NCBI GenBank assembly: GCA_035297365.1
Contig: DATGZA010000035.1
Location: forward strand, 1 to 26,260
From: Nitrososphaeraceae archaeon
Lineage (GTDB): Archaea; Thermoproteota; Nitrososphaeria; Nitrososphaerales; Nitrososphaeraceae
Length of the DNA: 26,260 bases
Reading direction: 5' to 3'
Shown here: positions 2-23,232 of the stretch, in pieces
Position numbering within the stretch: position 1 is the stretch's first letter
How the letters are laid out: each line of letters opens with the position of its first letter
The notes under the pieces: generated by a model
The model's database searches: none
What the model saw: only the letters and a program-made list of their open reading frames with translations
What the model was told of the DNA's origin: nothing
Program-made: the position numbers and the translations under genes

Positions 2-166
2 AATAGTAATAATAAAAATAAGACTAATAATGACATAAAATCAAATAGTAATATTATCCTAAAGAAGGCAGGTTTGTCAAAAATTAGAATAACTTCTACT
101 GTACCTACTTTGCAGGGAGAATTAAGATGGTTACTTACACCGAGAGTATTAAAGAGTATCATCTAG
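2..166 (+). CDS. sixA: 3' end of a SixA-like phosphohistidine phosphatase (5'-truncated by the window edge)
   Basis: Frame 2 is open from base 2 to TAG at 164-166 and reads ...NIILKKAGLSKIRITSTVPTLQGELRWLLTPRVLKSII*, matching the SixA C-terminal pattern LKKAG...G.L.WLLTP. It lies directly upstream of ppx and is absent from the ORF track. Confidence 0.75.
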   Translation, partial: NSNNKNKTNNDIKSNSNIILKKAGLSKIRITSTVPTLQGELRWLLTPRVLKSII

Positions 167-183
167 ATAAGACCATAAACAAA

Positions 184-1761
184 ATGACTTATGGAAAACT
201 TTCATTCCGTAAAGTATCGGTAATAGATTTGGGATATAATTCTCTAAAATTAGTTCATTATATTATATCTCCTAATAAATGTTATAAAAAATACTATGAG
301 AAAACTATTAGGGTGAAACTTGGAGAAGGTCTAAACAAAACAGGATTCTTGCGAACAGAGGCTATCGATAGAACTATTCAATCTCTAAAATATTTTCGTG
401 ATATTATTAATTCTGAATCTATTGAATTTACAATACCATTTGCTACTAGCGCAGTACGTGAAGCGGAAAATAAGAAATTGTTTCTGAAAAAAGTGGAAGA
501 AGAAACAGGATTTAAATTCAAATTATTATCAGCTAATGAAGAAGCTGCATATTCATATCTTGGTGCATTGAACTCACTATGTTTTTCAAATTGCTTATTT
601 TTTGATCTGGGAGGAGGAACTATAGAACTAGTAAGTTCTAGAGATTACAGAATAAGGAGAGTAATGTCTCTTCCCTTAGGAGCATTGAAGCTAACCCAGA
701 AATTTTTTTCAAACAATGAAGATAACAAAACTTCTATTAGTAAAAAACCTAAAATTATTTACAATATTTTAGGAGAACATATTATGAATCAATTACCAGA
801 TTCAAAAGAATTAGAAATCAATAGCGAATCTACTGCACTAATAGGTGTTGGGGGGACTCTAAGAGCGATTGCAAGATATGATCAATTGATCAAAGAATAT
901 CCAATCACAAGGTTACATAACTACAAACTAGATTTCCGTTCCGTATCCACCATCAAAGATCATCTATCTAATATGAATAAAGAAGAGTTATCTAAGATAG
1001 ATGTAATAGGTGCAAATAGAGCAGAAATAATCAAGGCGGGATTATATGTAATCTACTTCCTTATGTCAAAATTGGGTTTTAAGAGTATTATTGTTAGTAC
1101 AAAAGGATTACGAGAAGGAGTGCTCTTAAATTTTCTTGAATCCTGTCATTTAGATAATAGAACTGATTTGGACAATTATCTACTAAATAACTGTTACAAA
1201 AAAGACAAATCCAATTCAAGTTTAGCAAAGAAATTCTTATCAAATGGAATTATAACAAAAAATGAATACACTATTATTAATCAATCAATATTATATATGT
1301 CCAAGATTCTGACTAATGATAATATTGGTCAATTTTATATTCTCCTCAATGAGGATATCGTGAATCTGGATCATCATCAACATGTTATATTAGCATTATC
1401 AGTTCTGGCAATAAATAAGCCAAAAATAGCTCTTGAACTATCTGAAAATTACAGAAAGCTATTATATTATTATTATGATAAAAAAAAGATCAAAAACATT
1501 ATCGAAAGAATATCAACTTTCTTACGATTTTTAAATTTTGTGAAAAATAACAAATTAATAATTCAAATCAAAGAATATACAAAAATAACAAACAAGCTTT
1601 TACTGGAAATCGTAGTACAAGGTGATAAAAATAAAGAAATCTTTTCCTTTCCAGAAATTTTATTTAAAGAGATAATATCAGATTTTAAGTCTTCATTTGA
1701 TCTTTCAATACAATATACAATATTCGTCCAAGACAACAAAAGGAGTACAGATAGTAAATGA
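184..1761 (+). CDS. ppx: Ppx/GppA family exopolyphosphatase
   Basis: ASKHA motifs VIDLGYNS, FATSAVREA, EEAAYSYLG, FDLGGGTIE, GVGGTLRA, GLREGV. Start moved from 127 to ATG at 184 because 127 lies inside the upstream sixA. The C-terminal region is divergent with no clear HD motif. Confidence 0.93.
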   Translation: MTYGKLSFRKVSVIDLGYNSLKLVHYIISPNKCYKKYYEKTIRVKLGEGLNKTGFLRTEAIDRTIQSLKYFRDIINSESIEFTIPFATSAVREAENKKLFLKKVEEETGFKFKLLSANEEAAYSYLGALNSLCFSNCLFFDLGGGTIELVSSRDYRIRRVMSLPLGALKLTQKFFSNNEDNKTSISKKPKIIYNILGEHIMNQLPDSKELEINSESTALIGVGGTLRAIARYDQLIKEYPITRLHNYKLDFRSVSTIKDHLSNMNKEELSKIDVIGANRAEIIKAGLYVIYFLMSKLGFKSIIVSTKGLREGVLLNFLESCHLDNRTDLDNYLLNNCYKKDKSNSSLAKKFLSNGIITKNEYTIINQSILYMSKILTNDNIGQFYILLNEDIVNLDHHQHVILALSVLAINKPKIALELSENYRKLLYYYYDKKKIKNIIERISTFLRFLNFVKNNKLIIQIKEYTKITNKLLLEIVVQGDKNKEIFSFPEILFKEIISDFKSSFDLSIQYTIFVQDNKRSTDSK

Positions 1762-2477
1762 CGCAGATAAAAATAAGAAAAACTAGTAATATTACAACTA
1801 GTAAGACAACTAAAAAAGATAAGTATAGTATAAAAGGTAAATTAATTATAGTTGAAGGAATTGATGGATCAGGAAAATCAACACAAATTCATCTTCTTGA
1901 TAAATGGCTTAAATTTAAGAATATACCGGCTTTTTTATCAGAGTGGAATTCATCTGAAATTGTAAAAAATGTAACCTCTAGAGGTAAGAAAAAAGAACAA
2001 CTTACACCTACAACATTTTCGTTACTCCACGCAACTGATTTTGCAGATCGGTACGAAAGGAATATTTTTCCATTATTAAGAGCTGGTTACATAGTATTGG
2101 CAGATAGATATATCTATACAGCATATGCACGAGATATAGTAAGAGGATGTGATCCCCTATGGATCAGAAAAGTATATGATTTTGCTTTAAAACCTGATAT
2201 CACATTTTATTTCAGAGTTCCGGTGGATGTAGCTGCAGGACGAATATTATCTGGAAGACCCAAGCTAAAATATTACGAGGCTGGAATGGATCTAAATTTA
2301 AGTAATGATATTTATGAAAGTTATCGTATTTTTCAAAGTAGAATAATAGAACAATATGAGAAAATGGTCATGACTGAAACTTTCGCTGTTATAGATGGGA
2401 CACTAAATATAGAACAACAACAAAAAATGGTTAGAGAAAAATTTAACAATATTTTTCCGAGAGATATGTTAAAATGA
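1758..2477 (+). CDS. Thymidylate-kinase-like protein A (probable subunit of a heteromeric polyphosphate kinase)
   Basis: P-loop EGIDGSGKST, ADRY motif and KPD.TFY. ATGA overlap with the ppx stop. Confidence 0.88.
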   Translation: MTQIKIRKTSNITTSKTTKKDKYSIKGKLIIVEGIDGSGKSTQIHLLDKWLKFKNIPAFLSEWNSSEIVKNVTSRGKKKEQLTPTTFSLLHATDFADRYERNIFPLLRAGYIVLADRYIYTAYARDIVRGCDPLWIRKVYDFALKPDITFYFRVPVDVAAGRILSGRPKLKYYEAGMDLNLSNDIYESYRIFQSRIIEQYEKMVMTETFAVIDGTLNIEQQQKMVREKFNNIFPRDMLK

Positions 2478-3253
2478 GTAATTCAAATAAGATGAAAAAA
2501 ATGGAAAAATCTAATATTATTAAATATTATGGACATGGAATTCCTTATTTGAAGAATATAGAATTAAAAGGTAAATTGATCATATTAGAAGGACCAGATT
2601 CATCCGGAAGAAGTACACAAATCTTATTATTAAATAATTATCTTGAAGCAAATGGTCACGCAGTTCTTAATACAGGCCTCAGAAGATCTGAGCTAATAAG
2701 TGAAGGAATACTGGAGGCAAAAGAAAGACATTTATTAAGAAAAAGGACCATGAGTTTATTTTATGCTGCAGATTTTGCAGACCAACTCGAGAACAAAATA
2801 ATCCCAGCTTTGAGAGCAGGGTATATAGTATTAGCAGATAGGTATATTTACACACTTATGGCTAGGGATACTGTAAGAAAAATTAATAGAATATGGTCAT
2901 ATAATTTATATGGTTTTGCAATTAAACCCGATCTTGTTTTTTATTTAGATGTAGATCCAAATGAACTTATACGAAGGGCTTTTCAAAAATCTACAGAGGA
3001 ACTCCTGAAAGGAATTTTTGATAAAGATAATTTTCTTGATTATTATGAATCTGGAGAAGATATGGGGTTTTCGGATGATCTTTTAGAATCTTTTATTCTT
3101 TATCAAAAGAAAATGAAGCAAGAATTTACTAGATTACAAAAAAAATATGGAATTATTAAAATTAACGGAAATAGAACAGTAGAAGAAGTGCATAACGAGT
3201 TAAAACAAAAAATAGATCAATTTTTAAAAGTTCCATTCAATAATTCAAAATAA
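2474..3253 (+). CDS. Thymidylate-kinase-like protein B with variant P-loop (probable partner subunit)
   Basis: P-loop EGPDSSGRST (Arg in place of Lys). Shares PALRAGYIVLADRYIYT and YYESG.D.G with paralog A. ATGA overlap with the paralog A stop. Confidence 0.86.
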   Translation: MSNSNKMKKMEKSNIIKYYGHGIPYLKNIELKGKLIILEGPDSSGRSTQILLLNNYLEANGHAVLNTGLRRSELISEGILEAKERHLLRKRTMSLFYAADFADQLENKIIPALRAGYIVLADRYIYTLMARDTVRKINRIWSYNLYGFAIKPDLVFYLDVDPNELIRRAFQKSTEELLKGIFDKDNFLDYYESGEDMGFSDDLLESFILYQKKMKQEFTRLQKKYGIIKINGNRTVEEVHNELKQKIDQFLKVPFNNSK

Positions 3254-3488: not shown

Positions 3489-3917
3489 TTATTTCTTCAT
3501 TTGTTTATTCTTCTGCTTCTCCTCTTTCTTCATTTGTTTATTCTTCTGCTTCTCCTCTTTCTTTTTATTATTATATTTTGATGTATTTATTGTATCTATA
3601 TCACCACCAATTTTTTTTACATATGATTGTAGTTGAGAGATTTGAGATTTGATCTGTCCCAGTGATTGTAATTCCCTTTTGTGATTAGGATTGCTAGTTG
3701 ATTTAACGGCATTTTTCACATCCAGCAAAATTTTTTCTAGTTTTGAATAATGATCATTTTCATCTTGTAATTTTTTTAGAATTGTTTTCTGCGTATTAGT
3801 ATTAATTTTTAGTTGATCGTGCATATTTTTCAAGTCAAGAATATGTTCAAAATCTAGTGGTTTTTCATTTGTACCAATTTCAACTTCGGGTATATTTAGA
3901 TTTTTTATATTTGACAA
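3489..3917 (-). CDS. Hypothetical Lys/Gln-rich coiled-coil protein
   Basis: 142-aa ORF with a TTG start, heptad-like helical middle and a basic repetitive tail. Confidence 0.6.
   Translation of the reverse strand: MSNIKNLNIPEVEIGTNEKPLDFEHILDLKNMHDQLKINTNTQKTILKKLQDENDHYSKLEKILLDVKNAVKSTSNPNHKRELQSLGQIKSQISQLQSYVKKIGGDIDTINTSKYNNKKKEEKQKNKQMKKEEKQKNKQMKK
3492..3563. repeat. Perfect 33-bp tandem duplication (2 copies plus 6 nt)
   Basis: tttcttcatttgtttattcttctgcttctcctc at 3492-3524 and 3525-3557, encoding the 11-aa repeat in KKEEKQKNKQM-KKEEKQKNKQM-KK on the minus strand. Confidence 0.95.
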
Positions 3918-4574
3918 TATATTTTATTTAAACTACTAGTATTTATTGTTTATATTACTATAGACAACATATAGATATCTTAATGACTCTATTGATCCGA
4001 TATATTATGCATAGTCAATATTTCAATAAGATTTTCAGTTGGATAGTAGTGAGCGAGGATTACTAAAATAAGTGACCTTAACGACGAATTCTAATATCAA
4101 CGATCAATATTCCAATAAATCCTATGTTTGTCATCTTTTTTCGAGTCTGGTAGCAGTATATTATTCTTTTTACAATAAAAAAATCGTTTCATAAAGATAC
4201 ACAAATAACTACAATGGTTTGACAATACTAGGAATATAATAACTCAAATGAAACATATAGATTGTTCAATAATTATTTTTGAATTAAGAACATACAATCA
4301 ATTCCTGACATGCTAATATGATTTTATGGATTCGAGCAGTCACATGCGATTAAAGGTTGAAATCGATATCGATATTCAAACAGATCTTGTAGAGAACAAT
4401 AATCGACTTATCATAATTTAAGATGGAATAATAAAGTGTATCTGGAAGGGACTGTATGAAGAGTATGTTTCATTTCAGATAAAGAAATTTCACTTCCATG
4501 TGATTGGACAATATGAATGATATGCAGATAATAAAAAAATAGTACCTGACTTTGGAGAGAATTGAGCAGTTTTA

Positions 4575-4850
4575 TGATTGCAATCACAAGACCAATTTAT
4601 AGAACGTTGTGAAAGAAATAGAACAAACATCTGCAGATTCTGCACATATTAGGGGGAGAGAAAGATTGTTGGGCTTACAGGCATAAGTGACATAACACTA
4701 GTGGGAGCCGAAAAATATTTAGAACATTAGAAGTGGAGTAAGATCGGATAAATACCGTTCAACTATCTATTTAGATGAATATACTCGAAAGTATTTCCTG
4801 TTATAAATAAAGATAAACTAGTTGAGCTAATTACAGTTACCATAGACTGA
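4575..4850 (+). pseudogene. Decayed CBS-domain protein remnant
   Basis: KIVGLTGISDI (from 4662) and FPVINKDKLVELITVTID* (4794-4850) are in the same frame, separated by three stop codons. Both resemble the CBS signature [LF]PV...GKLVGIIT..DI. The 5' boundary is approximate. Confidence 0.55.
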
Positions 4851-5595
4851 CAAATTGGCAGCTCCCTAACAACAAGTCGTTAATTTCCGGAAAGAAGAAA
4901 GTGACATTTTTTTCCCTCTTTCTACTCCGGAATTATTGAAAATTCTAATTTTATATTCTAAATATGGATAAAGGATCTAATAGATTAATTATTTAGCACA
5001 AAGAGAAATAAAGAAAACGTATAGGATTTCTTTCATAATCAAATTATCTACATCTTCGCTAGAAATGAACAAATCCATACCTCAAGAGATTTTAATGCAT
5101 GATTAGAGACAATTTTCTAAGGTATTTTCAAGGTAGAATTTGATGTATTCTGTACAAAAAATCCAATAAAACACATCATGGATAAAATTAAAAAACGTTA
5201 ATTTTCAAAATGACAGAATGAATCTGTCAGACTATAATACGGAAAGACTTCAATCTAAAAATATGGAAAGTTTATCAAGAGTATTTTTTGAATGTAATTG
5301 TACTTTTTTCATGAAACTACTTCTCAAAAATAGGTGTGTAGTAGGCGTAAGACTATAATGTCATAAAACATTTTTTTATTGTATCTCTCTTAGAAGCTTT
5401 AAAAAACTCGGATCAATTGCAAATTAAGAATGTCGATAAAATCCATCAGAACCAATTCTTGCATTTTTTGTATTATTATCCAAATCCTAAATTGGACAGT
5501 CAAATTTTATTAACATCAATTATTTGCTACTTACGTTTTTTTTACATAAGATAAAGGTTTAAGAATTATTATAAATTAAGATGATTTGTCTGCAA

Positions 5596-6096: not shown

Positions 6097-6839
6097 TAAG
6101 GTTCAAGTTTCTGCAATCATAAGAGATGGATTGAAAATGTCTTTTTATTTGGATGATTATTCTAGTAAATATTTAATCTCTTATTGCATCAACACATCAC
6201 CGTCTTAATAGGATCTTATCACTACAAAAGCCCCTTATCTTTTGACCATTCATTTAAATCATTGTTATACATGCCTAAATCCTCAAAGATTCATAAAAAA
6301 CATTCTACTTTTAAAATCAAGTATACTAAACTATATCTACTAACATATTCAGGTATTGTAGTAATAAATCATTATTATCATCTCCTGTAATAAATTCAAA
6401 TTAATACCTTTAAAAAAAGCAACTATTGAATGGCAAATTAAATCATGGTTTGTATTATAGGGAAGAATCTGATAATTCTTCTGATGACATTATTACAGGG
6501 AGATTAGACCATTCTGAGACGAAAGAAGTTGTTACTGAAGAAACGGGTCCATTTATCCTTCAAATGCTACATGGAAATAGTTAAAAGAAGTTCAATATGA
6601 GGCATATCTAAAAAAATAAATCACTGGATCTTGACCGGCAAAACCCTCGCATCACTAATAGAAATTACAAATTCCCTAAGGTAATGTGATCATCCTACAG
6701 AAACGATAATTAAGGTTCTTGAAATATCGATTATAAACGTCTATGTTTCTAGTAGTTATGATAATTTTTGTCACAGCATTAATGAATACTCAAACCAGAC
6801 CAAATTAATTGTATGTTATTTATATATAAAAATTTCATA

Positions 6840-7136
6840 TCACCCACGTACCAATTTTTTCTTTACATTATAATATGATTCAATATTTTTTTCCATATAA
6901 TTGGAAATAAAATATAAAACTCCATACTTATCACCCATTTTAGTTATTAAATTATTTTTCTCTAAAACATGTATATGATGTTGAATTGTTTTATAATCTA
7001 GTTGTAATTCTTCGGAGATTTTATTGATATTTAAGGGTTTTTTGATCAATATGTCAAGAATTCTAATACGATTGTCACCTCCTCTTGTTCCAGCAAAAAG
7101 AAACCATAACAATCGTATTATATCCGGATCAGACAT
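6840..7136 (-). CDS. Archaeal ArsR-like winged-helix transcription regulator
   Basis: LWFLFAGTRGG..RIRIL, HTH NINKISEELQLDYKTIQHHIHVLEKNNLI and wing GDKYG.LYF. Confidence 0.88.
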   Translation of the reverse strand: MSDPDIIRLLWFLFAGTRGGDNRIRILDILIKKPLNINKISEELQLDYKTIQHHIHVLEKNNLITKMGDKYGVLYFISNYMEKNIESYYNVKKKLVRG

Positions 7137-7288
7137 CGAATATTATCAAAATAACTATGAGATGATAAAAAGCCTTTACTTCTAATACATCTTGATTTTT
7201 AAAATTAACGGTTTTAGTACAGGAGCTTTTGGACAGAAAAGAATTTTTTATAATATTTTTATACAATTTTTTATAATCTTTACATTAT

Positions 7289-7570
7289 TCAAAGAGTAAT
7301 CTTCAAAAGGCCAGCAACTCCTGCAAGCTCAGCTATATGAATCATTAAAAAAAATGGCAATAAACCTTCAGCATATAGTGGCGTCATAGCAAAATATGCG
7401 TAGACAACAATCAAATTTTGTATAACAAGCATACTTGCAAAAAACATTAAACCTATCGTGAATGTAGCCCTAGTTTTTAAATATATTTTTGTATACAGGT
7501 ATAATAAAACGCTCAGAATAATTATAGTTGCTATACTTAGGATAGCATTTATCTCCATTAGAGTTTCCAT
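7289..7570 (-). CDS. Small membrane protein (about 3 TM helices)
   Basis: Three hydrophobic segments, the RATFTIGLMFFA motif and a His in the last TM (IHIAELAG). Starts 20 nt after the redoxin stop. Confidence 0.8.
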   Translation of the reverse strand: METLMEINAILSIATIIILSVLLYLYTKIYLKTRATFTIGLMFFASMLVIQNLIVVYAYFAMTPLYAEGLLPFFLMIHIAELAGVAGLLKITL

Positions 7571-7590
7571 ATTGATAACCTTCTTATCAT

Positions 7591-8751
7591 TTAACCAAAT
7601 GTAAATGTGTAGATTTGAAATCCTGGTCCTTTAACATCAATTTCTATTGTATGTTCTCCATAGTTTTTGTTTGTTACTAAATTATACAACCTCTGTCCAT
7701 CTACCACAAATTTGCCACGGCTATCTGAATCTTTGCTTAAATCATTTGTAATCAGTTTTCCATCTTGTATTACTGTAAAGTTCCCTTTTGCACCTGCTAC
7801 TATGTTTACAGATTTTGAATTGTATTTTAATAATATACTTCCGTTATTGCTCTGTAATTCCATGTGATCCGGATTATTTTTCCATTTTCCTTCTAGATAT
7901 ATCATATTAGGTTTAATTTCAGAATTTTCTGGTAGATTATAAAAAAGACTCTGGTTGGGTTTAAAACCTTCTGTATTGCCTAAAGATGCTCTTGCGAATT
8001 CATATCCAAAGTAAAGCTCTGGAGATTTTATTTTTGAAAAATTAACGTCCTGAGATTCTAACTTCGAACCACTGTCAACATTTTGAGAAATATTAAGATT
8101 TATGTTTTTTATTCCTAAATGTCCTGCTCTTTCGGTCAAAAGACCTTGAATTACTTTTTCAGTTTCATTGTAGGCTCCTTCTCCTATGTGATCATATCTT
8201 ATATATCCTTCATCATCTACCAAATATTTTCTTGGCCAGTATCTATTATCATATTCATTCCATGTCTCTTTATCATTGTCCTGTAAAACTGGATATTTTA
8301 TTCCGAATTTTTGAACTGCCGATTTAACATTTTCACTATTTTTTTCAAATTCAAATTCAGGAGTGTGTATACCCACTATGACTAATCCTTTATCAGAATA
8401 TTTATCATACCATTCATTAAGATATGGAATGGTTCTTATACAATTAATACAACTATAGGTCCAAAAGTCTACTAGAACAACTTTATCTCTCAGATCATCA
8501 AGGGATATTGGTTTTGTATTAATATATTCTGAAATTTTAGAAAAATCTTTGGCTTTTTTGAATTGTGATTTGTCAATTTGGATCATTTTTCCATCCTTAT
8601 CATTTTGTGACGTTAAATCTACATATTCAGCAGAAGTAGATTTTTTGGTAGAAATACTTGCTTCTTGAGTATTGAAATAAATTGCAAATCCAGCTATCAC
8701 AGATACTACCGTAATTGCCATAACAACTGCACTGATATTATCTCTATTCAT
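7591..8751 (-). CDS. Membrane-anchored DipZ-type redoxin (TlpA-like thioredoxin plus C-terminal DipZ domain)
   Basis: N-terminal TM anchor, DFWTYSCINC active site, GIHTPEF, NRYWP, HIGEGAY and C-terminal YTFTFG. Confidence 0.92.
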   Translation of the reverse strand: MNRDNISAVVMAITVVSVIAGFAIYFNTQEASISTKKSTSAEYVDLTSQNDKDGKMIQIDKSQFKKAKDFSKISEYINTKPISLDDLRDKVVLVDFWTYSCINCIRTIPYLNEWYDKYSDKGLVIVGIHTPEFEFEKNSENVKSAVQKFGIKYPVLQDNDKETWNEYDNRYWPRKYLVDDEGYIRYDHIGEGAYNETEKVIQGLLTERAGHLGIKNINLNISQNVDSGSKLESQDVNFSKIKSPELYFGYEFARASLGNTEGFKPNQSLFYNLPENSEIKPNMIYLEGKWKNNPDHMELQSNNGSILLKYNSKSVNIVAGAKGNFTVIQDGKLITNDLSKDSDSRGKFVVDGQRLYNLVTNKNYGEHTIEIDVKGPGFQIYTFTFG

Positions 8752-8754
8752 AGA

Positions 8755-9570
8755 TCATATACCCCTTTCTAGATTGATGATTTCATTTGCAAGTGGAAAA
8801 TTACCCAGAATATTTAACTGATTTGTGAATATCAGTATTCCAAGAATTATTAAAAAGGTTCCCATTACAGGATTAAAATATTTCAAATACTTTGCCATCT
8901 TCTTTATCAATCCAGTTGCCGTTGAAAAAAAAGCAGCTGTTATCAAGAATGGAGTTCCTAGTCCCAATGAGTATGCTAATAGTAAGTTATATGCCTCTCC
9001 AGGAGATGTCGCTGCTAAAGTAAATGTACTTCCAAGAATTGGACCTACACATGGAGTCCAGCCTGCAGCAAAGGCAATCCCAAATACAAATGAAGTAATA
9101 TAACTTGTTTTAAATTTAGGAATCTTGGTGAATTTCCTCTCAAAGTTTAAGTTGTTTATCTTTGAAGATAGTATCAGAAATACTCCGAAAGATATAATCA
9201 CGATTCCACCAAATATTTGAAGAGTGTTTTGAAAAGTACTACCTATATTTACCAAAACACTGTTGAGAGCAACTCCTAAAAAGGCAAACACTACTGAAAA
9301 TCCTAGTACAAAATAAACTGTATTTAAGAATATATTAACTCTAGTAGATTTCTGTAGAGATATGCATTTTTTATTACTGTTGATAGCATTGATAGATGTC
9401 TCAATATTCTCATTATCAACAGAACTCTTTGTTTTATTTATGTTACTAATTTCATTAAGAGTTGAACCTGATAAATAGGAAATAAAAGCAGGTAGGATAG
9501 GTAAAATACAAGGAGAGAAGAATGATCCCATTCCAGCAATAGCCGAAACTACTATATTAATTTCTGCCAT
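8755..9570 (-). CDS. ccdA: CcdA/DsbD transmembrane electron transporter
   Basis: Two conserved PC motifs (FFSPCILP, GWTPCVGP), about 6 TM helices and a hydrophilic insertion after the first motif. Stop lies 3 nt before the redoxin start. Confidence 0.93.
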   Translation of the reverse strand: MAEINIVVSAIAGMGSFFSPCILPILPAFISYLSGSTLNEISNINKTKSSVDNENIETSINAINSNKKCISLQKSTRVNIFLNTVYFVLGFSVVFAFLGVALNSVLVNIGSTFQNTLQIFGGIVIISFGVFLILSSKINNLNFERKFTKIPKFKTSYITSFVFGIAFAAGWTPCVGPILGSTFTLAATSPGEAYNLLLAYSLGLGTPFLITAAFFSTATGLIKKMAKYLKYFNPVMGTFLIILGILIFTNQLNILGNFPLANEIINLERGI

Positions 9571-9589
9571 GTATAAAATTTAATAATTC

Positions 9590-9639
9590 TTAATAAAAAG
9601 GATATTCCCAAATTAGACCCACAATCTACCCAACTTGAT
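9590..9639 (-). promoter_or_regulatory. ccdA promoter: TATA box plus three 11-bp-phased direct repeats
   Basis: The minus strand reads CTTTTTATTAA at 9600-9590, 20-30 nt before the ATG. On the plus strand: cccaaattaga (9607), cccacaatcta (9618), cccaacttgat (9629). Confidence 0.65.
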
Positions 9640-9954
9640 ATAAATAGATCACGGAGTTTAATTTATAAATTGCAGGTTCAATGGCTGCTAAGGCTATAAA
9701 CAAGTTAAAAACCAATTATTAGTATTTATTAATCAAACAGAATATCCGAATTTTATCTATAATAGATTATTGTCCGAATACTATGAATAAATGACTGATA
9801 GAAATTATGATCATAAAGGAATGCATTATACGAATCCACAATTCTTCACAAACAAAATCTTTTATCATTACAATAAAAAGCCGTACTAATTATGAGAGAT
9901 ATTATTGCTAATAGGTTAACAAATTAGTTCGAATTCGCTCGATAAATCAAAATT

Positions 9955-9986
9955 AAAAAAAGGTTGGAGAAAGAAGAGAGGGAGTG
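9955..9986 (-). terminator. Pyrimidine-rich/oligo-T archaeal terminator
   Basis: After the stop, the minus strand reads cactccctctcttctttctccaacc followed by a T run. Confidence 0.5.
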
Positions 9987-11060
9987 TTATGCTTCAACAA
10001 ATGGACAATTAACTATTACTCCCGCAATTTCAGTCTTTAGATGATCTTGTTTTGCATGTTCTGTTATTTCTTGAAATGAAGTAAGAAATTGTGATTGTAC
10101 AGGATCTTTCCATGTTACAGCTTGAATTCTCCATAATGGACTATAAGCTTCATCGCCGACATTCGTAGAAGCAATACTTGCCTGGAATCCCATAGGACCC
10201 GTTCCCTTTATTCCATTTGTAAATACATAGAGATCTGAAGAAGACCCTGATTTTAGAGTTGCACCAGTTTTATTGACAAATATAACTCCTAGATCATCTG
10301 CAACTTTCTTGACAGAAGCATCAGTTGCTATATAGTATATCTTGGAGCCATCAGGGGCAAATCCTCGGTGTGCTACAAAAGTAACCTGCATCTTCTTTGT
10401 ATCAATGCTAAGAACTTGTCCTCCACCATATGCCGATTCATCGGTTAATGTCTTATTTTCTCTAACTTTTAGAGAACCATCTTTCCATTGTACAAATGGG
10501 CAGTTTACAATTATGTCTGTTGGTTTAATTGTTAACTCCTTTTTCTCTAATGCATTGAGTATATCTGCTTCCGATGTCAATTCTCGTGGCGTTATACCAT
10601 TATTCCATGTTACAAGATTAACTTTCCATAATGGTGAATAATTATTATCCCCAGGTTGTGAGTCTGCAACATTTGGTTGAAATCCTTCCGGACCACTTCC
10701 TTTAATGCCATTAGTAAATTCATATATGTTTGCAAGTGATTGTGCGGGAGCATACTTTAATGCTGGAGTGTATACAACTCTAGAATTAGTTAGATTGGAA
10801 AGATAACTTGCCAGATTCTTATCTGATACTTCTGTTGTAATATAGAAAACTTCATTACCGTCTGCAAAACCTCTAACTAGAGGAAGTACCTTCGGAATAT
10901 TTGTTTCCGTAAGATTTTGTGTTTTTTCATTCTGTGCATAGGAATTTACTACTTGCGAAGACATAGAAGATAATAAAGACACTGAAAAAATCAATGTAAC
11001 TAATCCTGCTCCTAAAATCCATATTTCATATCTTTCACTTGATTTATATCTGATTGTCAT
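9987..11060 (-). CDS. Exported protein with two tandem ~130-aa repeats (DUF7482-like), one Cys per repeat
   Basis: N-terminal signal/TM segment. Each repeat has RGFA(P)DG, Y.FTNGIKG.GP.GFQ, GD..YSPLW and IVNCPFV. The DUF assignment is from memory. Confidence 0.85.
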   Translation of the reverse strand: MTIRYKSSERYEIWILGAGLVTLIFSVSLLSSMSSQVVNSYAQNEKTQNLTETNIPKVLPLVRGFADGNEVFYITTEVSDKNLASYLSNLTNSRVVYTPALKYAPAQSLANIYEFTNGIKGSGPEGFQPNVADSQPGDNNYSPLWKVNLVTWNNGITPRELTSEADILNALEKKELTIKPTDIIVNCPFVQWKDGSLKVRENKTLTDESAYGGGQVLSIDTKKMQVTFVAHRGFAPDGSKIYYIATDASVKKVADDLGVIFVNKTGATLKSGSSSDLYVFTNGIKGTGPMGFQASIASTNVGDEAYSPLWRIQAVTWKDPVQSQFLTSFQEITEHAKQDHLKTEIAGVIVNCPFVEA

Positions 11061-11080
11061 TAAAGTTCATTTTGTAATTG

Positions 11081-11141
11081 GATTAAAAAACTATTTCTCC
11101 ATATTGAGTCCAATTTATGCCCAAATTAATTCCAGATTCTC
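11081..11141 (-). promoter_or_regulatory. Promoter of the repeat-protein gene: BRE/TATA plus four 11-bp-phased direct repeats
   Basis: The minus strand reads GAAATAG-TTTTTTAATC, 21-37 nt before the ATG. On the plus strand: tccatattgag (11098), tccaatttatg (11109), cccaaattaat (11120), tccagattctc (11131). Confidence 0.7.
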
Positions 11142-11303
11142 TAGTAAATATCTATAGCATCTTTATAAAATTTATAACCAATGACAATAGCTTTATCTTG
11201 AGAATACCGTTATGCTGAATTAATAAGCTTAAAAATAGAATATTTTAAAATAATAATTTGTAATTAAAAGAATCATATTATATTATTATTAAATGTATAA
11301 TAT

Positions 11304-12596
11304 ATGCATAAAGAATCAAATTCATATCTATCCATTAGAACAGCATTTAACAAATTAAGAAAAAATATTGTTGTTCACCCGGTATCTGAAGAAGTAAATA
11401 CTAGAGATTCATTAGGTCGTGTTTTATATAATGACATTATTTCATCGATTGATATTCCAATACATGATTCTTCACACATGGATGGTTTTGCTGTTCTCTA
11501 TGACGATATAATTGGTGCTTCACGTTCGAGTCCAGTGACACTAAAAGTAATAAATGATATCAAACTCGGAAATACTAAAATTGAACCTTTACATTCACGA
11601 CAAGCTTCTAGAATTCCAACAGGCGGATATCTACCTAGAAATTCTGATACAGTTATTCCTATTGAATATGTAAAATATAACGAAAACGATAAATCAGTAA
11701 AGATCTTTTCTGAATTTACCAAAGGATCATTTGTATCTCCTGCAGGAAAGGATATTTCTAAAAATAAATTATTATTTAAAAAAGGACATTTAATTCGAAC
11801 TCAAGATATATCTTTGTTGAACTTAGTTGGGATTAAAAAAGTAAATATATTTAAAAAACCGAAAGTTGCAATAATTGCTACGGGAAATGAGCTGACCAAT
11901 AATATTGAAGAGGTCACTCAAGGAAAGGTTCTCAATACTAATGGTCCAATTATTTGCACCCTGGTGGAAGCATCTGGAGGAATATCTGTTGATCTAGGAA
12001 TAACAACTGATAATATCAAAGATATCCAGAACAAGATAAAACTTGCATTAACTGAAAATGATATCATTCTTACAATAGGAGGGTCTTCTGTTGGACATAA
12101 GGACCTCCTTGCAGAATCTATCAATTCTATGGGACATCCTGGAATTTTAGCTGAGGGAATTAAATTGGATAGAGGAAGAGTAACCAAAATTGCTGTGTTA
12201 AAGCATAAGCCAATTATTATATTACCTGGACCTATCCAAGGAGCTGTTAATGCCTTCATTGTATTGGCTATGCCACTAATTAGATCATTTCTTGGATTAT
12301 CTCAAATTAACGAAGCTAAAATAAATGCTCATATTACTGACAATTGGAATGCAAGAAAGCAATTTCAAAATTTTGTAAAAATCTTATATGTTCATCTATC
12401 TGCATCAAACACAAACAATCGTATAAGGGCCCAACCAATAACTGGAGAAACCTCAAATATGACAGTTATGACTAGAGCAAATGGTTATGTGATAGTACCT
12501 GAAAAAATAACAAATATTGAAAAGGAGAATGAGGTTCAAGTAAATTTGCTTTCTGGATTTTCTTTTCCATCCAGCAACCCCATCGATTTGGTGTGA
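11304..12596 (+). CDS. moeA: Molybdopterin molybdotransferase MoeA
   Basis: SLGRVL..DI, S.MDGFAV, IPTGG.LP..SD.VIP.E, IATGNEL, GGSSVG.KD and ILPG. Confidence 0.93.
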   Translation: MHKESNSYLSIRTAFNKLRKNIVVHPVSEEVNTRDSLGRVLYNDIISSIDIPIHDSSHMDGFAVLYDDIIGASRSSPVTLKVINDIKLGNTKIEPLHSRQASRIPTGGYLPRNSDTVIPIEYVKYNENDKSVKIFSEFTKGSFVSPAGKDISKNKLLFKKGHLIRTQDISLLNLVGIKKVNIFKKPKVAIIATGNELTNNIEEVTQGKVLNTNGPIICTLVEASGGISVDLGITTDNIKDIQNKIKLALTENDIILTIGGSSVGHKDLLAESINSMGHPGILAEGIKLDRGRVTKIAVLKHKPIIILPGPIQGAVNAFIVLAMPLIRSFLGLSQINEAKINAHITDNWNARKQFQNFVKILYVHLSASNTNNRIRAQPITGETSNMTVMTRANGYVIVPEKITNIEKENEVQVNLLSGFSFPSSNPIDLV

Positions 12597-12599
12597 CTA

Positions 12600-13406
12600 T
12601 TACTTGAATAAATTTCTAGCAAGATTAATTGCTGCTAATGCAACTAAAATTCCTATTATCATTATTATTTTGTTATGATCAAATTTAAATGCCCCAAGTC
12701 TAGACCCAAGTATACCCCCGAATAGAACAATTACAGACAAGGGCATTACCAAGTCAAAATCAATATGTTGGATGTTGTTTATATAATGAGCAATAAACCC
12801 ACTTATAGAATTTGTTAGTATAAATAAGCTTGCTGAAGCGGCTGCCTCTTTGGGGTTGGCTAACCCCGACATTATCAATATTGGTGAAAGCCATATTCCT
12901 CCTCCTATCCCAACAAGACCAGAGATACCACCAAGAAGTGCACCTAAAGGACACGTTATAAGCGCATTCTTGGTTAAATTCAAATTCAATTTTCTCATCT
13001 TCTCATATTGAAGCGTTAACTTTCTTCCGGACAATAGTAATGCGGCTGAAGCAGAAAAAAGGGATATGACAAAAATGAAGGTTAATATTTTTTCGGGCAA
13101 AACTATAGAACCTCCTAAAAATGCAAAAGGTACTGAAATTAAAAGAGGAATCGATAATCTTAAGGACAGATGTCCTGCTTTTAGATAATTAAAAAGAGCA
13201 GATGAAGACACAATAATATTTAGTGCTAGGGAGATTGGAGGCACTGCATACAAATTGACTCCAACAAGAACGAGGATAGCAATATAACTACTTCCCCCAG
13301 CAAATCCTACAGAAGAATAAAAAAAACTTATTATAAAGAAGATAGGGGCAAGTACTAATATTAGAACATCATTAATGACCCTTCCCTCCCAACATATTAA
13401 ATACAT
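12600..13406 (-). CDS. TauE/SafE (TSUP) family sulfite/sulfur-compound transporter
   Basis: Duplicated motif SSVGFAGGSSY / GLVGIGGGIWLSP, A...SA.FI..NS and about 8 TM helices. The exact start is uncertain because ATG 13406 overlaps the end of moaCB. Confidence 0.88.
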   Translation of the reverse strand: MYLICWEGRVINDVLILVLAPIFFIISFFYSSVGFAGGSSYIAILVLVGVNLYAVPPISLALNIIVSSSALFNYLKAGHLSLRLSIPLLISVPFAFLGGSIVLPEKILTFIFVISLFSASAALLLSGRKLTLQYEKMRKLNLNLTKNALITCPLGALLGGISGLVGIGGGIWLSPILIMSGLANPKEAAASASLFILTNSISGFIAHYINNIQHIDFDLVMPLSVIVLFGGILGSRLGAFKFDHNKIIMIIGILVALAAINLARNLFK

Positions 13407-14319
13407 GAAATATGCTAGGGAAAAGAAGATCTAACGATTCAGATACCCCTTTAGTACTTCCAGGTAGATTTACAATGAGAGTTTTATCTCTAATACCAGA
13501 TATTCCCCTTGAAAGCATTGATAGCGGTGTTCTCCTTTGACCATATGATCTGATAGCTTCGGAAATTCCTATTGCCTCTCTATCAACAACCATTTTAGTA
13601 GCATCTGGAGTTACATCTCTTTTACTAAAACCAGTACCTCCGGTGGTTATTATTAGATCTACTTTTTTATCATCAGAATATTTGATAAGAAGTGTCTTAA
13701 TTTTGTCCATATCGTCAGGTAATATTTCATAACCAACAATCTCAGTAGTAGTAGCATAAGTATTTTTTAGTATATCAGAGATCAATTTACCTGATTTGTC
13801 AACTCTCGTTCCATTAAAAGTAGAATCACTTATAACAAAAATAGCAATATTAATTTTTTTATCAAGAGTTTGAATAAAATCTCTTTTCCCTCCAGTTTTT
13901 TCTAACAGCTTTATTGACTCTATTGATAAATCTTCATCTATTGGCTTGAGCATATCGTATACAGCAAGAGCAGCGGTACTACAACCAGTCAATGCTTCCA
14001 TTTCTACTCCTGTTTTCCAGACACTTTTAATATTAACTTTAATTTCTATAGATGATTGGTGTAACAGCAGTTGTGTAGAAATATGATCTATTGGAATGGG
14101 ATGACAGTAAGGTATCAATTCCCATGTTTTTTTTGCTCCAAGTGTAGCTGAAATTTTTGCGGCCTCAATGATATCTCCCTTTGGTGTCCTCTCATTTTTT
14201 ATAAGATCAATACTTTCGGGATTTACTTTGATTATTGCTTGTGCAGTAGCAGACCTCAATGTATCTGCTTTTTTGGAAACATCAAACATTCCTCTATAAG
14301 AATTTCTTTCATTCACCAC
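13372..14319 (-). CDS. moaCB: Bifunctional MoaC-MoaB/MogA fusion
   Basis: MoaC part: MFDVSKK, KGD, AKKT.ELIP.CHP, TGVEMEALT, YDMLK, LLEKTGG. MoaB part: ISD...G.R.DKSG, ITTGGTG...RD.TP, LSRG..G, VNLPGS. Confidence 0.95.
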   Translation of the reverse strand: MVNERNSYRGMFDVSKKADTLRSATAQAIIKVNPESIDLIKNERTPKGDIIEAAKISATLGAKKTWELIPYCHPIPIDHISTQLLLHQSSIEIKVNIKSVWKTGVEMEALTGCSTAALAVYDMLKPIDEDLSIESIKLLEKTGGKRDFIQTLDKKINIAIFVISDSTFNGTRVDKSGKLISDILKNTYATTTEIVGYEILPDDMDKIKTLLIKYSDDKKVDLIITTGGTGFSKRDVTPDATKMVVDREAIGISEAIRSYGQRRTPLSMLSRGISGIRDKTLIVNLPGSTKGVSESLDLLFPSIFHVFNMLGGKGH

Positions 14320-14743
14320 TTATCATAACACCTTCTACCCATTCAGAATTGCCAGATTGCATTTTTTCCTTCTTCCAAATTGGACATCTTTTCTTAATAT
14401 TATCAATTCCATAGTTACAGGCTTCAAAAGCATCTTTTCTATGTTCTGATGAGACTCCAACTATGACACTGATTTCTCCAACTTTAAGGTATCCTGTTCT
14501 ATGTATGGCAATAAATTTTTTAACACTCCAATTCTCAAAGATTTCCTTTTCAATTTTTTTTAATATTTCTCCAACCATTTCTTCATAAGCTTCATAAAAA
14601 ATACCCTTCACTTTTCCCTTAGGGCTATTATTCCTAACGGAACCTGTAAACAAAACTAATGCACCAGATGAATCGTCTTTAATTTGATCTAAAATTTTTA
14701 GTTGATCGATCACATCTTTTGTTATAGAAATCATAAATATCAT
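14309..14743 (-). CDS. moaE: Molybdopterin synthase catalytic subunit
   Basis: GALVLFTGSVRN, YEAY..M, HRTG.L.VGE.SV, S.HR..AF.AC and PIWKKE. Confidence 0.95.
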   Translation of the reverse strand: MIFMISITKDVIDQLKILDQIKDDSSGALVLFTGSVRNNSPKGKVKGIFYEAYEEMVGEILKKIEKEIFENWSVKKFIAIHRTGYLKVGEISVIVGVSSEHRKDAFEACNYGIDNIKKRCPIWKKEKMQSGNSEWVEGVMISGE

Positions 14744-14756
14744 CTCCTAACTATCT

Positions 14757-15047
14757 TTATCCGCCACTTATAGGTGGTATTACGGCAATTTCATCATGTG
14801 GAGTTACCTCTACATTATCATTCCGTATCACTTTATTAACGGCAAAAACAAAGTTTATCCCATTCATAAAGAGAGAAGGATATGATTCTTCAAGATTTTT
14901 TCGGAGTTCTTTCAATGAAATTGAATTATCATTAATACGAATAATCAGATTATTACTTCTCAATTTTTCTCTAAAAATTCCAAATAATTTTATCCTTAAA
15001 ATTCTATCTTCTGTCAAGTTTTTCATGTTCACTCTCTGGTCAATCAC
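14757..15047 (-). CDS. moaD: MoaD/ThiS (SAMP-like) sulfur carrier
   Basis: Beta-grasp pattern IKLFG.FRE, FAVN and the C-terminal DEIAVIPPISGG diglycine. An alternative start is ATG at 15026. Confidence 0.92.
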   Translation of the reverse strand: MIDQRVNMKNLTEDRILRIKLFGIFREKLRSNNLIIRINDNSISLKELRKNLEESYPSLFMNGINFVFAVNKVIRNDNVEVTPHDEIAVIPPISGG

Positions 15048-15106
15048 CTCTTGTCTGAATAAGATTCGAGGTTCGTCTGGGTTCTAAATACATACATATA
15101 TTTTAT

Positions 15107-15751
15107 TTACTTTAATTTTGTTAGTTTTTCCATAAAATAGTTACGCCAGCCATCTGGAAGATCTTTAACCTTTATAGCGCGATTCATCATATCGGTATCT
15201 CTACCACCATTTGTTTGAAGGCGAACTATATCTCGTATTGTAACTTTATTTTCATCACTTTTTATTAATTCAATTTTATCTTCTACTCCTATTTCTCCTT
15301 CTTCTTCCACCTTGAAATATATTCCTGAACGTTCACTTGCCATGAATCTACGTATTATATCCATTCTGCCAAATCTTACAGCAAGTTTATAGCATGGCAT
15401 TCTAGGTTGTGTAGCTATTACCTTTGCAGATCCGATTTGAAATTGATCACCTATATTGACTAGATCCTCAAGTAAACCTTCTGTTGTAAGATTTTCTCCA
15501 AATGTTCCCCAAGAATATTCAAAATCTTTTATCTCCTTTTTCCAGAACCTGTAATGTTCTGATGGGTACGAATACACTGCTTTGTCTATGCCACCATGTA
15601 CCGTCAAATCTGCTTGCTTGTCTCCTTCCAAATTTAGCTTGTAGAGTTTGATTCTATGTTTGATTGGATTTTTAAAAATAGCCGTAGTAACAATTTCTTT
15701 GCCAAAATTTACTTTTACTGGAAGTCCGACATTTACAGATATAATCTTCAT
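15107..15751 (-). CDS. yiiM: MOSC domain protein with 3-alpha domain (YiiM-like molybdoenzyme)
   Basis: TAIFK.P, GD.QAD..VHGG.DKAVY.Y, FGENLTTEG, the QPRMPCYKL Mo-ligand Cys motif and RSG.YFKV.EEG. Confidence 0.9.
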   Translation of the reverse strand: MKIISVNVGLPVKVNFGKEIVTTAIFKNPIKHRIKLYKLNLEGDKQADLTVHGGIDKAVYSYPSEHYRFWKKEIKDFEYSWGTFGENLTTEGLLEDLVNIGDQFQIGSAKVIATQPRMPCYKLAVRFGRMDIIRRFMASERSGIYFKVEEEGEIGVEDKIELIKSDENKVTIRDIVRLQTNGGRDTDMMNRAIKVKDLPDGWRNYFMEKLTKLK

Positions 15752-22638: not shown

Positions 22639-23232
22639 CTATTTTACTTCAATTTTATACTCGTATTTTAGTGGTTGTGGCAAAAAAGTATTATCAAAAT
22701 CTATTCCAGTAATTTCAGCCACTAATCTGTATTCTCCTGTGCTACTAAAAATGGGACCTTCTATCTTTATAGGACTACCAAAGTCAGAAACATAGCTTGC
22801 TGCTAGGGTATCATAATTTGCGCTAACACGGTATCTTTCTATATTGCTATTGATGAATTCAATGTTGATATCGCCATTATGTCCGTGAAGATTTTCAGTC
22901 ATTAAATTTTTATTTTTGTCATCGTAGATGCTTATTATGTATGTAACGTGTGGGATATTGTTTCCTGTTTTATTGTCTATCAATGCTAAACTAACTTTTC
23001 CTTTTTCCGATACTGTGAATGTGGGATTATTGAATTTTAAAAAAAGTTCTCTATCTCCTATAATTGAAGGAGGTAAATTATGACCATCACCTCCACCACC
23101 ATGCATCTGTCCAAAAACATCATTAAAGAATCCTGGATAATTGATTAATATTGAATTTATCACTATTGTAAGAGTAATCGTGAACATGATCCTACTTAAA
23201 CTCGATTTTTTTAAATCTAAGAGCTCATTCAT
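22639..23232 (-). CDS. Secreted or membrane-anchored hypothetical protein with His motifs
   Basis: N-terminal hydrophobic segment ending near VFG, then QMHGGGGDGH, PHVTY and HGHNG, and a beta-rich body. Confidence 0.8.
   Translation of the reverse strand: MNELLDLKKSSLSRIMFTITLTIVINSILINYPGFFNDVFGQMHGGGGDGHNLPPSIIGDRELFLKFNNPTFTVSEKGKVSLALIDNKTGNNIPHVTYIISIYDDKNKNLMTENLHGHNGDINIEFINSNIERYRVSANYDTLAASYVSDFGSPIKIEGPIFSSTGEYRLVAEITGIDFDNTFLPQPLKYEYKIEVK

Follow-up and report, generated by a model that had tools for sequence, protein, structure and literature searches.

A periodic TGGR promoter element and a possible copper/redox regulon around the exported DUF7482 family of ammonia-oxidizing archaea

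Introduction

CcdA-type membrane proteins supply electrons to outward-facing thioredoxin-fold proteins that reduce specific clients, and the sections of PMC3914529 on Streptococcus pneumoniae assign a role in extracellular oxidative-stress resistance to the CcdA-Etrx-MsrAB2 pathway. As outlined in PMC6669012, TlpA keeps the Cys residues of ScoI and CoxB reduced ahead of copper insertion, and the summary of the Scs system in PMC10907172 describes a coupling of copper and thiol redox homeostasis. For ammonia-oxidizing archaea (AOA), the parts of PMC7785015 on copper report that copper proteins are used in place of bacterial heme carriers, and that dsbD-family genes of N. viennensis, beside ArsR genes and exported proteins of unknown function, are upregulated under copper limitation. 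Here we analyze a locus on contig DATGZA010000035.1 of a Nitrososphaeraceae archaeon, a soil ammonia oxidizer (assembly GCA_035297365.1; positions 1 to 26,260, hereafter the window), in which genes for an exported repeat protein of the DUF7482 family, a CcdA, a membrane-anchored redoxin, a protein with three transmembrane (TM) segments (3-TM protein) and a winged helix-turn-helix (wHTH) protein lie together, and in which the DUF7482 and ccdA promoters have an unusual periodic element in common.

AOA drive nitrification, and they combine a strong dependence on copper enzymes with sensitivity to peroxide. Little is known of their handling of extracellular copper and oxidants or of their transcriptional regulation. 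Text searches of the AOA literature for CcdA, thioredoxin and disulfide oxidoreductase returned next to nothing, and a full-text literature search found no paper that names the DUF7482 family. In public records the DUF7482 protein of the window is labeled 'hypothetical protein', and a member of the identical cluster of its CcdA 'cytochrome c biogenesis protein CcdA', a role for which the organism probably does not use it.

Results

All five open reading frames (ORFs) of the locus are present on the minus strand, as the sequence-only reading of this DNA had stated, and their identities are upheld by Pfam and PDB matches (Table 1). They probably form three transcription units, namely DUF7482, ccdA-redoxin-3TM and wHTH, and not one operon, because DUF7482 and ccdA are separated by a gap of 416 bp that contains a T7 run and ccdA's own promoter, and the wHTH gene has its own upstream gap of 152 nt. 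The T7 run starts 26 nt past the DUF7482 stop codon, and a T-run after DUF7482 is conserved in six orthologous loci. The spacing between ccdA and the redoxin gene is 3 nt, and since the 3-TM gene starts only 20 nt past the redoxin gene, it is probably part of the ccdA operon. A T-rich TATA-like box lies ∼21–30 nt upstream of the ccdA ATG, and the last ∼70 bp upstream of this ATG are almost invariant across six orthologous loci. The likewise T-rich TATA-like box of DUF7482 lies ∼22–30 nt upstream of the ATG at 11060 and is conserved in the aligned orthologous promoters.

The promoters of DUF7482 and ccdA carry the same kind of repeat. Four units (TGGA/TGGG/TGGA/TGGA) with an exact 11-bp spacing precede DUF7482 and end 11 nt before its TATA-like box, and three TGGG units with the same exact spacing end at the same distance before the box of ccdA. 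The pattern TGGR-N7-TGGR-N7-TGGR has three matches in the window, all of them at these two promoters, where 0.03 were expected, and none of 100 window shuffles reached three matches. Since the two promoters differ outside the TGG units, neither is a recent copy of the other. All 10 aligned orthologous DUF7482 promoters conserve the element while the flanks diverge. A 9-mer, TAATTTGGG, was also tried with one mismatch allowed and was not enriched (8 found, 13 expected); only the periodic pattern was significant.

For comparison, 80 related AOA loci with 946 kb in total were searched; since these loci are related, the site counts do not represent independent events. The three-unit pattern was found at 36 sites, all on the sense strand and ∼35 nt upstream of a start codon: 28 precede DUF7482, five ccdA, and one each a wHTH gene (L060), an msrB gene (L054; identified as SelR, E 5e-53) and a small membrane ORF (L048, position 9038). 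The stricter two-unit pattern yielded 49 sites against 0.4 expected, 38 of them before DUF7482 and two before wHTH operons; the latter, in L060 and L079, have a 21-mer in common. Upstream of ccdA the element was present by pattern in five of five related loci, and before the ccdA of the Nitrosopumilus locus L065 it was recognized with a score of 20.9 by a position weight matrix (PWM), which was built from the pattern sites as seeds and applied with the shuffle maximum of 11.8 as threshold. The PWM also placed non-seed sites before DUF7482 in L043, L067, L021, L062, L061, L070, L056, L053 and L057. Repeats located upstream of a TATA box and abutting it would fit an activator. The TGGR repeat is not one of the two promoter motifs that PMC7785015 gives for copper-responsive genes of N. 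viennensis.

The repeat protein belongs to Pfam PF24298, DUF7482 (287.7 bits against a gathering cut-off of 27.5, E 1.2e-85, in two stretches). Its earlier description as uncharacterized holds for function, none being known, although the family was already catalogued. The protein has a single N-terminal hydrophobic segment (residues 11–38) for export or anchoring, and its halves are 41% identical across 129 aa (E 5e-32), with the core of the ∼136-aa unit (F-x-N-G, G-F-Q, Y-S-P, W and N-x-P) present in both. As first noticed, it contains exactly two Cys, Cys187 and Cys352, each within an IVNCPFV motif (at 184 and 349). All 19 aligned homologues keep both of them, and so do all 74 complete AOA ORFs with two repeats, where they are usually the sole Cys of the mature protein and the number of Cys is always even, 2 or 4. 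The family is present in the AOA genera sampled, namely Nitrososphaera, Nitrosocosmicus, Nitrosopolaris, Nitrosotenuis, Nitrosarchaeum, Nitrosopumilus, Nitrosotalea and Nitrosomirales.

Across the family as a whole the conservation of the Cys is partial. A profile search of 1.84 billion representative proteins gave 1168 clusters at E ≤ 0.001, and among the best 150 of these, one repeat is present in 81 proteins, two in 66 and four in three. The flanks of the N-x-P motif are near-invariant over the domain instances (N in 193/199, P in 192/198), whereas the middle residue varies: C in 91 of 199 instances, M in 40, A in 20, S in 15, and more rarely Y (8), T (7), L (6), F (4), H (3), V (3), K (1) or R (1). 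The domain is nearly free of Cys outside this position. Among 57 two-repeat representatives the Cys of the second repeat is kept in 46 and that of the first in 21; 26 have it in the second repeat only and one in the first only. In eight of nine single-repeat proteins of the C type it is the lone Cys of the mature protein. Such a lone exported Cys would point to a functional thiol or an intermolecular site and not to an internal structural disulfide. The DUF7482 model matched 61 of 61 members of the family alignment, and a relaxed Pfam scan of these members showed no second recurrent family. A profile of both repeats found nothing significant among PDB sequences (best E 0.88). The single-repeat profile gave a marginal match to ribosomal protein L23 over 42 residues (E 0.023), which we take as chance or a generic beta-alpha-beta motif.

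DUF7482 is also found fused to domains of redox and metal proteins. A CcdA-type TM domain is joined to a single DUF7482 repeat in P0233 and P0278 (by Pfam) and in P0279 (by sequence motifs), all three with the CcdA Cys motifs of the window type, and P0288 and P0290 have the same length as these fusions. Four proteins (P0170, P0222, P0262 and P0389) combine DUF7482 with a Thioredoxin_4/DSBA domain; P0389 is of the AOA type, 63% identical to the window protein; it retains both NCP Cys and carries a CPKC domain as well as Met-rich linkers. Plastocyanin is fused to DUF7482 in P0081 and P0138, and P0306 consists of the C-terminal part of a heavy-metal/Cu-type P1B ATPase (TIGR01525, 364 bits against a cut-off of 346), an extra TM segment and DUF7482.

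Periplasmic Cu(I) proteins typically carry Met-rich tracts. Such tracts, defined as at least 6 M in 25 aa, were present in 31 of 87 DUF7482 ORFs compared to 22 of 973 other ORFs of the same loci, several of the 22 being DM13 neighbors of DUF7482, and in 25 of the 150 best family representatives.

The CcdA of the window matches Pfam DsbD_TM (PF02683; 45.6 bits, cut-off 27.1), and its hydrophobic segments span the whole protein, as expected for about six TM segments. A hallmark of the CcdA family is one Cys next to Pro in each of two membrane segments; here these are Cys21 in FFSPCILP and Cys174 in GWTPCVGP. The redoxin has one N-terminal TM segment, an active-site CINC at residues 101–104, and AhpC-TSA/Redoxin/Thioredoxin_8 domains followed by Thioredoxin_10 (E 1.5e-33). 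Residues 66–386 match the soluble part of M. tuberculosis DipZ (2HYX/5CYY) with E 5e-54, and CcdA and redoxin are separate ORFs, in agreement with the proposed split DipZ. The AhpC-TSA match reaches 58.8 bits (cut-off 26), yet the redoxin has the CxxC active site of TlpA/ResA, with DipZ and ResA as its best relatives among structures. The NCBIfam equivalog cut-offs are not reached for ResA (77.6 of 170 bits), TlpA (26.6 of 230) or DsbE (31.1 of 123), and ResA, the best of these matches (E 1e-21), indicates likeness at the family level only. The CxxC is kept in four of five aligned redoxin orthologues. No ResB/CcsA-type gene is present among the window ORFs of at least 90 aa, and AOA are not known to possess c-type cytochromes. 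By the role established for these families, CcdA would act as a membrane thiol-disulfide electron transporter, from a cytoplasmic reductant to the outer CxxC redoxin.

Gene neighborhoods were compared in the 78 loci where a DUF7482 ORF was called. At distances of up to 3 kb from this ORF we found wHTH genes in 13 loci, DM13 in 12, 3-TM in 10, ccdA in 6, redoxin in 5 (by hidden Markov model), plastocyanin in 4 and msrB in 3. In 45 loci DUF7482 is flanked by 3 kb or more on either side, so most absences are real. Synteny with ccdA and the redoxin is restricted to the close relatives L001, L002, L006, L007 and L013 and to the distant L065. The latter, from Nitrosopumilus, holds all five families in a rearranged order, where one strand carries redoxin and ccdA and the opposite strand DM13-wHTH-3TM-DUF7482-DM13; the promoters of the two sets stand back to back and both have the TGGR motif. 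Its DUF7482 protein is 57% identical to that of the window and falls into a distant clade. In a maximum-likelihood tree the ccdA-linked DUF7482 genes occupy two distant clades and the label requires at least three changes; within the 13-member clade of the window the context shifts among ccdA, DM13 and neither. The sequence-only reading had called the system self-contained, which overstates the case: msrB too has the element in front of it, and the place next to DUF7482 can be taken by DM13 or DoxX genes instead.

Exported DM13 ('electron transfer DM13') proteins directly adjoin DUF7482, with gaps of up to 184 nt, in L003, L005, L011, L021, L029, L050, L057, L065 and L067. Most of these loci have the DM13 gene directly downstream; in L021 and L057 it is upstream, and L065 has one on either side. 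Some DM13 neighbors carry Met-rich linkers of their own, and DM13 is among the most frequent protein-coding neighbors of DUF7482. A third locus type within the window clade is seen in L008 (6288-8653), where a DUF7482 gene with a different signal sequence and no TGGR element is preceded by a gene for a MEDS-domain protein and followed after 6 nt by one for a DoxX/DoxD/MauE-like membrane protein, another redox-membrane partner. A large FTR1-like iron permease, recognized in the sequence by REGLE/REGFE motifs, is encoded convergently to DUF7482 in five Nitrososphaera loci; loci of this kind are L015, L018, L019, L022, L023 and others.

The wHTH protein matches Pfam HTH_5/ArsR (34.5 bits, cut-off 22), reaches 32.8 of the 55 bits required for the NCBIfam metalloregulator subfamily, and matches ArsR and CzrA weakly in the PDB (E 4e-4 to 7e-3). 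It has no Cys, and its His53-His54 is invariant (10/10). The 3-TM protein shows three hydrophobic segments and has no match in Pfam and NCBIfam. The pairing of the two, suggested earlier from this one locus, is borne out by the comparison: each 3-TM homologue that can be checked adjoins a wHTH gene, in either gene order. Of all 15 wHTH matches, 13 lie at most 3 kb from DUF7482. Together with the 3-TM protein, the wHTH protein is likely the regulator that acts on the TGGR repeats. The exact 3-TM sequence is absent from a collection of 15 billion proteins, though the four neighbor proteins are present in it; the gene was probably left uncalled, or called from another start, in the public record.

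Several DUF7482 genes stand in tandem as paralogues: one Nitrosotalea locus holds three copies, and Ca. Nitrosotalea devanaterra has two (tandem loci: L079 2298-9023; L077 4384-8963; L054 2133-4214). Many DUF7482 proteins of Nitrosopumilaceae and Nitrosotenuis are extended at the C-terminus past the Met-rich linker (P0094, P0102, P0112, P0115, P0120 and P0396; L065 7785-9398), and the extension of P0396 has a weak match below cut-off to RskA_C, the C-terminal domain of anti-sigma-K factor (E 1.3e-5). Locus L025 (CAVPNP010000011.1) is titled 'uncultured Alphaproteobacteria bacterium', and its DUF7482 is of the AOA type and nested in a Nitrososphaeraceae clade; the title is probably a binning error and does not indicate transfer.

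The window is AT-rich with ∼30% GC. The closest related locus is L013, from an uncultured Nitrososphaerales metagenome-assembled genome, with a repeat protein 95% identical and the same flanks, the MoeA and histidine-phosphatase genes being kept. The 416-bp spacer between DUF7482 and ccdA has neither a credible ORF nor a match in Rfam, and no conserved fold at the RNA level: an Rfam scan of 6500-11400 gave nothing meaningful (best E 0.88), and RNAalifold predicted a weak structure for the gap (-6.35 kcal/mol) with compensatory change in 3 of 21 predicted pairs. A segment reaching ∼130 nt past the DUF7482 stop codon (9860-9990, minus strand), which includes CTATTAGCAATAATAT and a second T-rich stretch, is conserved in five of six orthologous loci. 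Scans for bacterial sigma-70 promoters and terminators stayed at chance level, as expected for an archaeon. A molybdenum-cofactor cluster (11304-15751) adjoins the DUF7482 gene (Table 1). Farther away, 127-3253 holds a Ppx/GppA phosphatase gene followed by two overlapping thymidylate-kinase-family genes, and the ORFs at 3489-3917 and 22639-23232 (both minus strand) have no Pfam match.

Table 1. Genes and putative regulatory features of the DUF7482 locus and of the adjoining molybdenum-cofactor cluster (window coordinates)
Feature	Coordinates	Strand	Basis
DUF7482 protein, 357 aa, two ∼135-aa repeats	9987..11060	-	ORF, Pfam, self-alignment
CcdA (DsbD_TM family), 271 aa	8755..9570	-	ORF, Pfam
Membrane-anchored TlpA/ResA-like redoxin with DipZ-type C-terminal domain, 386 aa	7591..8751	-	ORF, Pfam, PDB
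3-TM protein, 93 aa	7289..7570	-	ORF, hydrophobicity
ArsR-family wHTH protein, 98 aa	6840..7136	-	ORF, Pfam
Four TGGR units, putative operator of DUF7482 gene	11098..11134	-	Pattern, 10/10 aligned promoters
TATA-like box TTTTTTAAT of DUF7482 gene	11082..11090	-	Sequence reading; presumed TATA role
T7 run, likely archaeal oligo-T terminator of DUF7482 gene	9955..9961	-	Conserved; presumed function
Three TGGG units, putative operator of ccdA operon	9607..9632	-	Pattern, PWM
TATA-like box TTTTTATTAA of ccdA operon	9590-9599	-	Sequence reading
MoeA	11304-12596	+	
TauE/SafE-type exporter	12600-13406	-	
MoaC fused to MoCF_biosynth domain	13372-14319	-	
MoaE	14309-14743	-	
ThiS/MoaD-like protein	14757-15047	-	
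MOSC-domain protein	15107-15751	-	

Discussion

From the sequence comparisons we propose, with about an even chance of being right, that these genes belong to an AOA regulon that manages copper and redox homeostasis on the cell surface, with CcdA and the redoxin holding the Cys of DUF7482 in reduced form. Most of this weight falls on the regulon and on the partner link, and roughly a third on copper specifically. All three transcription units of the locus would belong to this regulon, which would be small, conserved among AOA and marked by three or four TGGR units at 11-bp spacing that abut the TATA box. CcdA would carry cytoplasmic reducing equivalents across the membrane to the outward-facing CxxC redoxin, and the exported DUF7482 protein would be the preferred partner of this redoxin, with Cys187 and Cys352 held in the thiol state. 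DUF7482 may act in copper(I)/redox homeostasis of the cell surface, either as a Cu(I)-handling or as an oxidant-exposed surface protein, and is probably not an enzyme with the NCP Cys as a family-wide catalytic residue, while the ArsR-type wHTH and the 3-TM protein would regulate via the TGGR repeats. The connection of DUF7482 to thiol-redox partners, first drawn from this one locus, is strengthened by the common promoter element, the rearranged set in L065 and the fusions to CcdA and DsbA-like domains, but applies to the regulon and not to a fixed synteny. Copper handling, initially named as an alternative, gains support from the plastocyanin fusions, the heavy-metal ATPase fusion and the Met-rich tracts.

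Several observations weigh against this proposal. Synteny with the reducing pathway, which the sequence-only reading had proposed as a test, is rare, with ccdA in six and the redoxin in five of the 78 loci. The element (PWM score ≥ 11.8, seeds counted) precedes only 37 of the 73 DUF7482 genes with enough upstream DNA, and the close relatives L004, L008 and L010 have neither the element nor ccdA. The motif Cys, complete in AOA, is not conserved in the family as a whole, which at that level goes part of the way to the refutation named in the sequence-only reading. Cys are missing altogether from the CcdA-fused and ATPase-fused DUF7482 domains, therefore the link to CcdA cannot depend on the motif Cys in general. 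The thioredoxin domain of P0389 is closest to the disulfide-forming BdbD and the DsbA of Gram-positive bacteria, opposite to a reducing pathway. In L065 the redoxin (4430-5530, minus strand) has lost the first Cys of the CxxC by a three-residue deletion (YS---CIRT), which leaves one Cys in the active site; this could reflect a genuine monothiol form, a gene in decay or a faulty assembly. The window DUF7482 protein has no Met-rich tract, and typical metal ligands are absent from the invariant residues of the domain (G, N, Q, Y, S, P, W). Finally, the candidate regulator is assigned to the operator by gene adjacency.

Four other explanations were considered. The element could run a response to oxidative damage at the surface without direct involvement of copper, with reductant from CcdA and the redoxin, repair of Met sulfoxide by MsrB, and DUF7482 as a sacrificial or protected surface protein. 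The element before msrB in L054, related sites in L048 and L050, msrB within 3 kb of DUF7482 in three loci, the enriched Met-rich tracts and the precedent of CcdA-Etrx-MsrAB2, as PMC3914529 outlines it, favor such a response, and a further precedent is a Met-rich peptide of the periplasm that reportedly works with a Met sulfoxide reductase; we nevertheless consider it rather improbable, since the msrB genes have no visible export signal and are linked at few loci, the window protein has no Met-rich tract, and the plastocyanin and heavy-metal ATPase fusions would be left unexplained. CcdA and the redoxin might alternatively serve as an extracytoplasmic reductase of general use, acting for instance on the Cys ligands of the many AOA copper proteins, with DUF7482 as an incidental neighbor in this lineage. 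DUF7482 and ccdA are in separate transcription units, 72 of 78 loci have no ccdA near DUF7482, the context shifts within the window's own clade, and Trx and Dsb families have repeatedly been acquired in AOA according to the passages of PMC7554672 on these families. An incidental neighborhood is unlikely, however, given a periodic element that is common to both promoters and otherwise nearly absent from ∼1 Mb of AOA DNA, the recurrence of the association in rearranged form in Nitrosopumilus, and the existence of CcdA-DUF7482 and DUF7482-thioredoxin fusions.

The remaining two explanations concern the Cys themselves. DUF7482 could be a new thiol-dependent reductase or peroxidase, as first suggested, with a catalytic NCP Cys recycled by the co-regulated CcdA and redoxin. 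Both Cys are invariant in the 74 complete AOA orthologues, single-repeat relatives of the C type have a lone Cys, and the second-repeat Cys is kept in 46 of 57 proteins even where the first is lost. Against this, 108 of 199 instances have another residue at this position while the neighboring N and P stay, the CcdA-fused domains are free of Cys, and PDB profile searches gave no similarity to solved structures, including peroxiredoxins and Msr enzymes, which makes a general catalytic role of the NCP Cys distinctly unlikely. If the Cys instead form a structural disulfide between the repeats, DUF7482 would be a module that binds or docks a ligand or partners such as DsbA-like, DM13 or DoxX proteins, with no thiol chemistry of its own. 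The always even number of Cys in AOA orthologues, the oxidase-type, BdbD-like thioredoxin domain of the fusion, the polar or aromatic character of the conserved residues in place of metal ligands, and the presumably functional members without Cys are in line with such a scaffold. But the 26 representatives with Cys in the second repeat only, compared to one with Cys in the first only, and the single-repeat members with a lone Cys speak against an inter-repeat disulfide, and co-regulation with a reducing pathway is hard to square with a purely structural one, so that we regard this explanation as quite improbable.

Returning to the proposed copper/redox regulon, a broader and more tentative idea is that DUF7482 represents an unstudied class of extracytoplasmic copper/thiol proteins, spread over the AOA genera, and forms a stress regulon of its own at the surface, whose possible parts are CcdA, split DipZ, MsrB, DM13 or DoxX partners, an ArsR-wHTH/3-TM sensor pair and the TGGR operator. 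If true, this would be the first defined transcriptional regulon with a cis element for copper/oxidant homeostasis in AOA. CcdA-dependent extracytoplasmic reducing pathways are already known; the partner family and the promoter element would be new. The fusions to CcdA, DsbA-like proteins, plastocyanin and a heavy-metal ATPase provide a first functional context for DUF7482, and the locus offers testable handles in the form of an exported family, a reductant supply line and a sharp promoter element with a candidate regulator.

Among the described systems, M. tuberculosis DipZ resembles the window in domain order, since a thioredoxin domain is followed by Thioredoxin_10 in both and a CcdA-type partner is encoded directly upstream of the redoxin here. 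DipZ is a single polypeptide of membrane and soluble parts, whereas the window has two genes for them; the match does not name a function, as the client of DipZ itself is not established. CcdA-ResA cytochrome c maturation uses the same two protein families, but the ResA score is under the cut-off and a ResB/CcsA-type gene is missing from the window ORFs surveyed. With CcdA-Etrx-MsrAB2 the locus has in common a CcdA and a surface thioredoxin-fold protein encoded with a client, and the Etrx structures 4hqz and 2yp6 are among the PDB matches of the redoxin. The client there is a known Msr enzyme, whereas here msrB is in the regulon at some loci only and appears to be cytoplasmic.

In their logic, the bacterial Scs system and TlpA-ScoI are the closest analogies. 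As in the TlpA-ScoI/CoxB pathway of Bradyrhizobium, a membrane-anchored thioredoxin would keep the Cys pair of a client reduced for metal binding; DUF7482 differs by having no Sco-like or cupredoxin sequence and no CxxxC, its Cys being 165 residues apart in separate repeats. ScsABCD likewise combines a DsbD-family transporter, a membrane-linked TlpA-like reductase (ScsD), an exported partner and stress-responsive regulation. Its exported partner is the DsbA-like, Cu(I)-binding ScsC, whereas here this place would be taken by DUF7482, a family with other members fused to a domain of the DsbA-like kind, and the CcdA of the window has none of the extra domains of ScsB and would be controlled through an archaeal promoter and an ArsR-type regulator.

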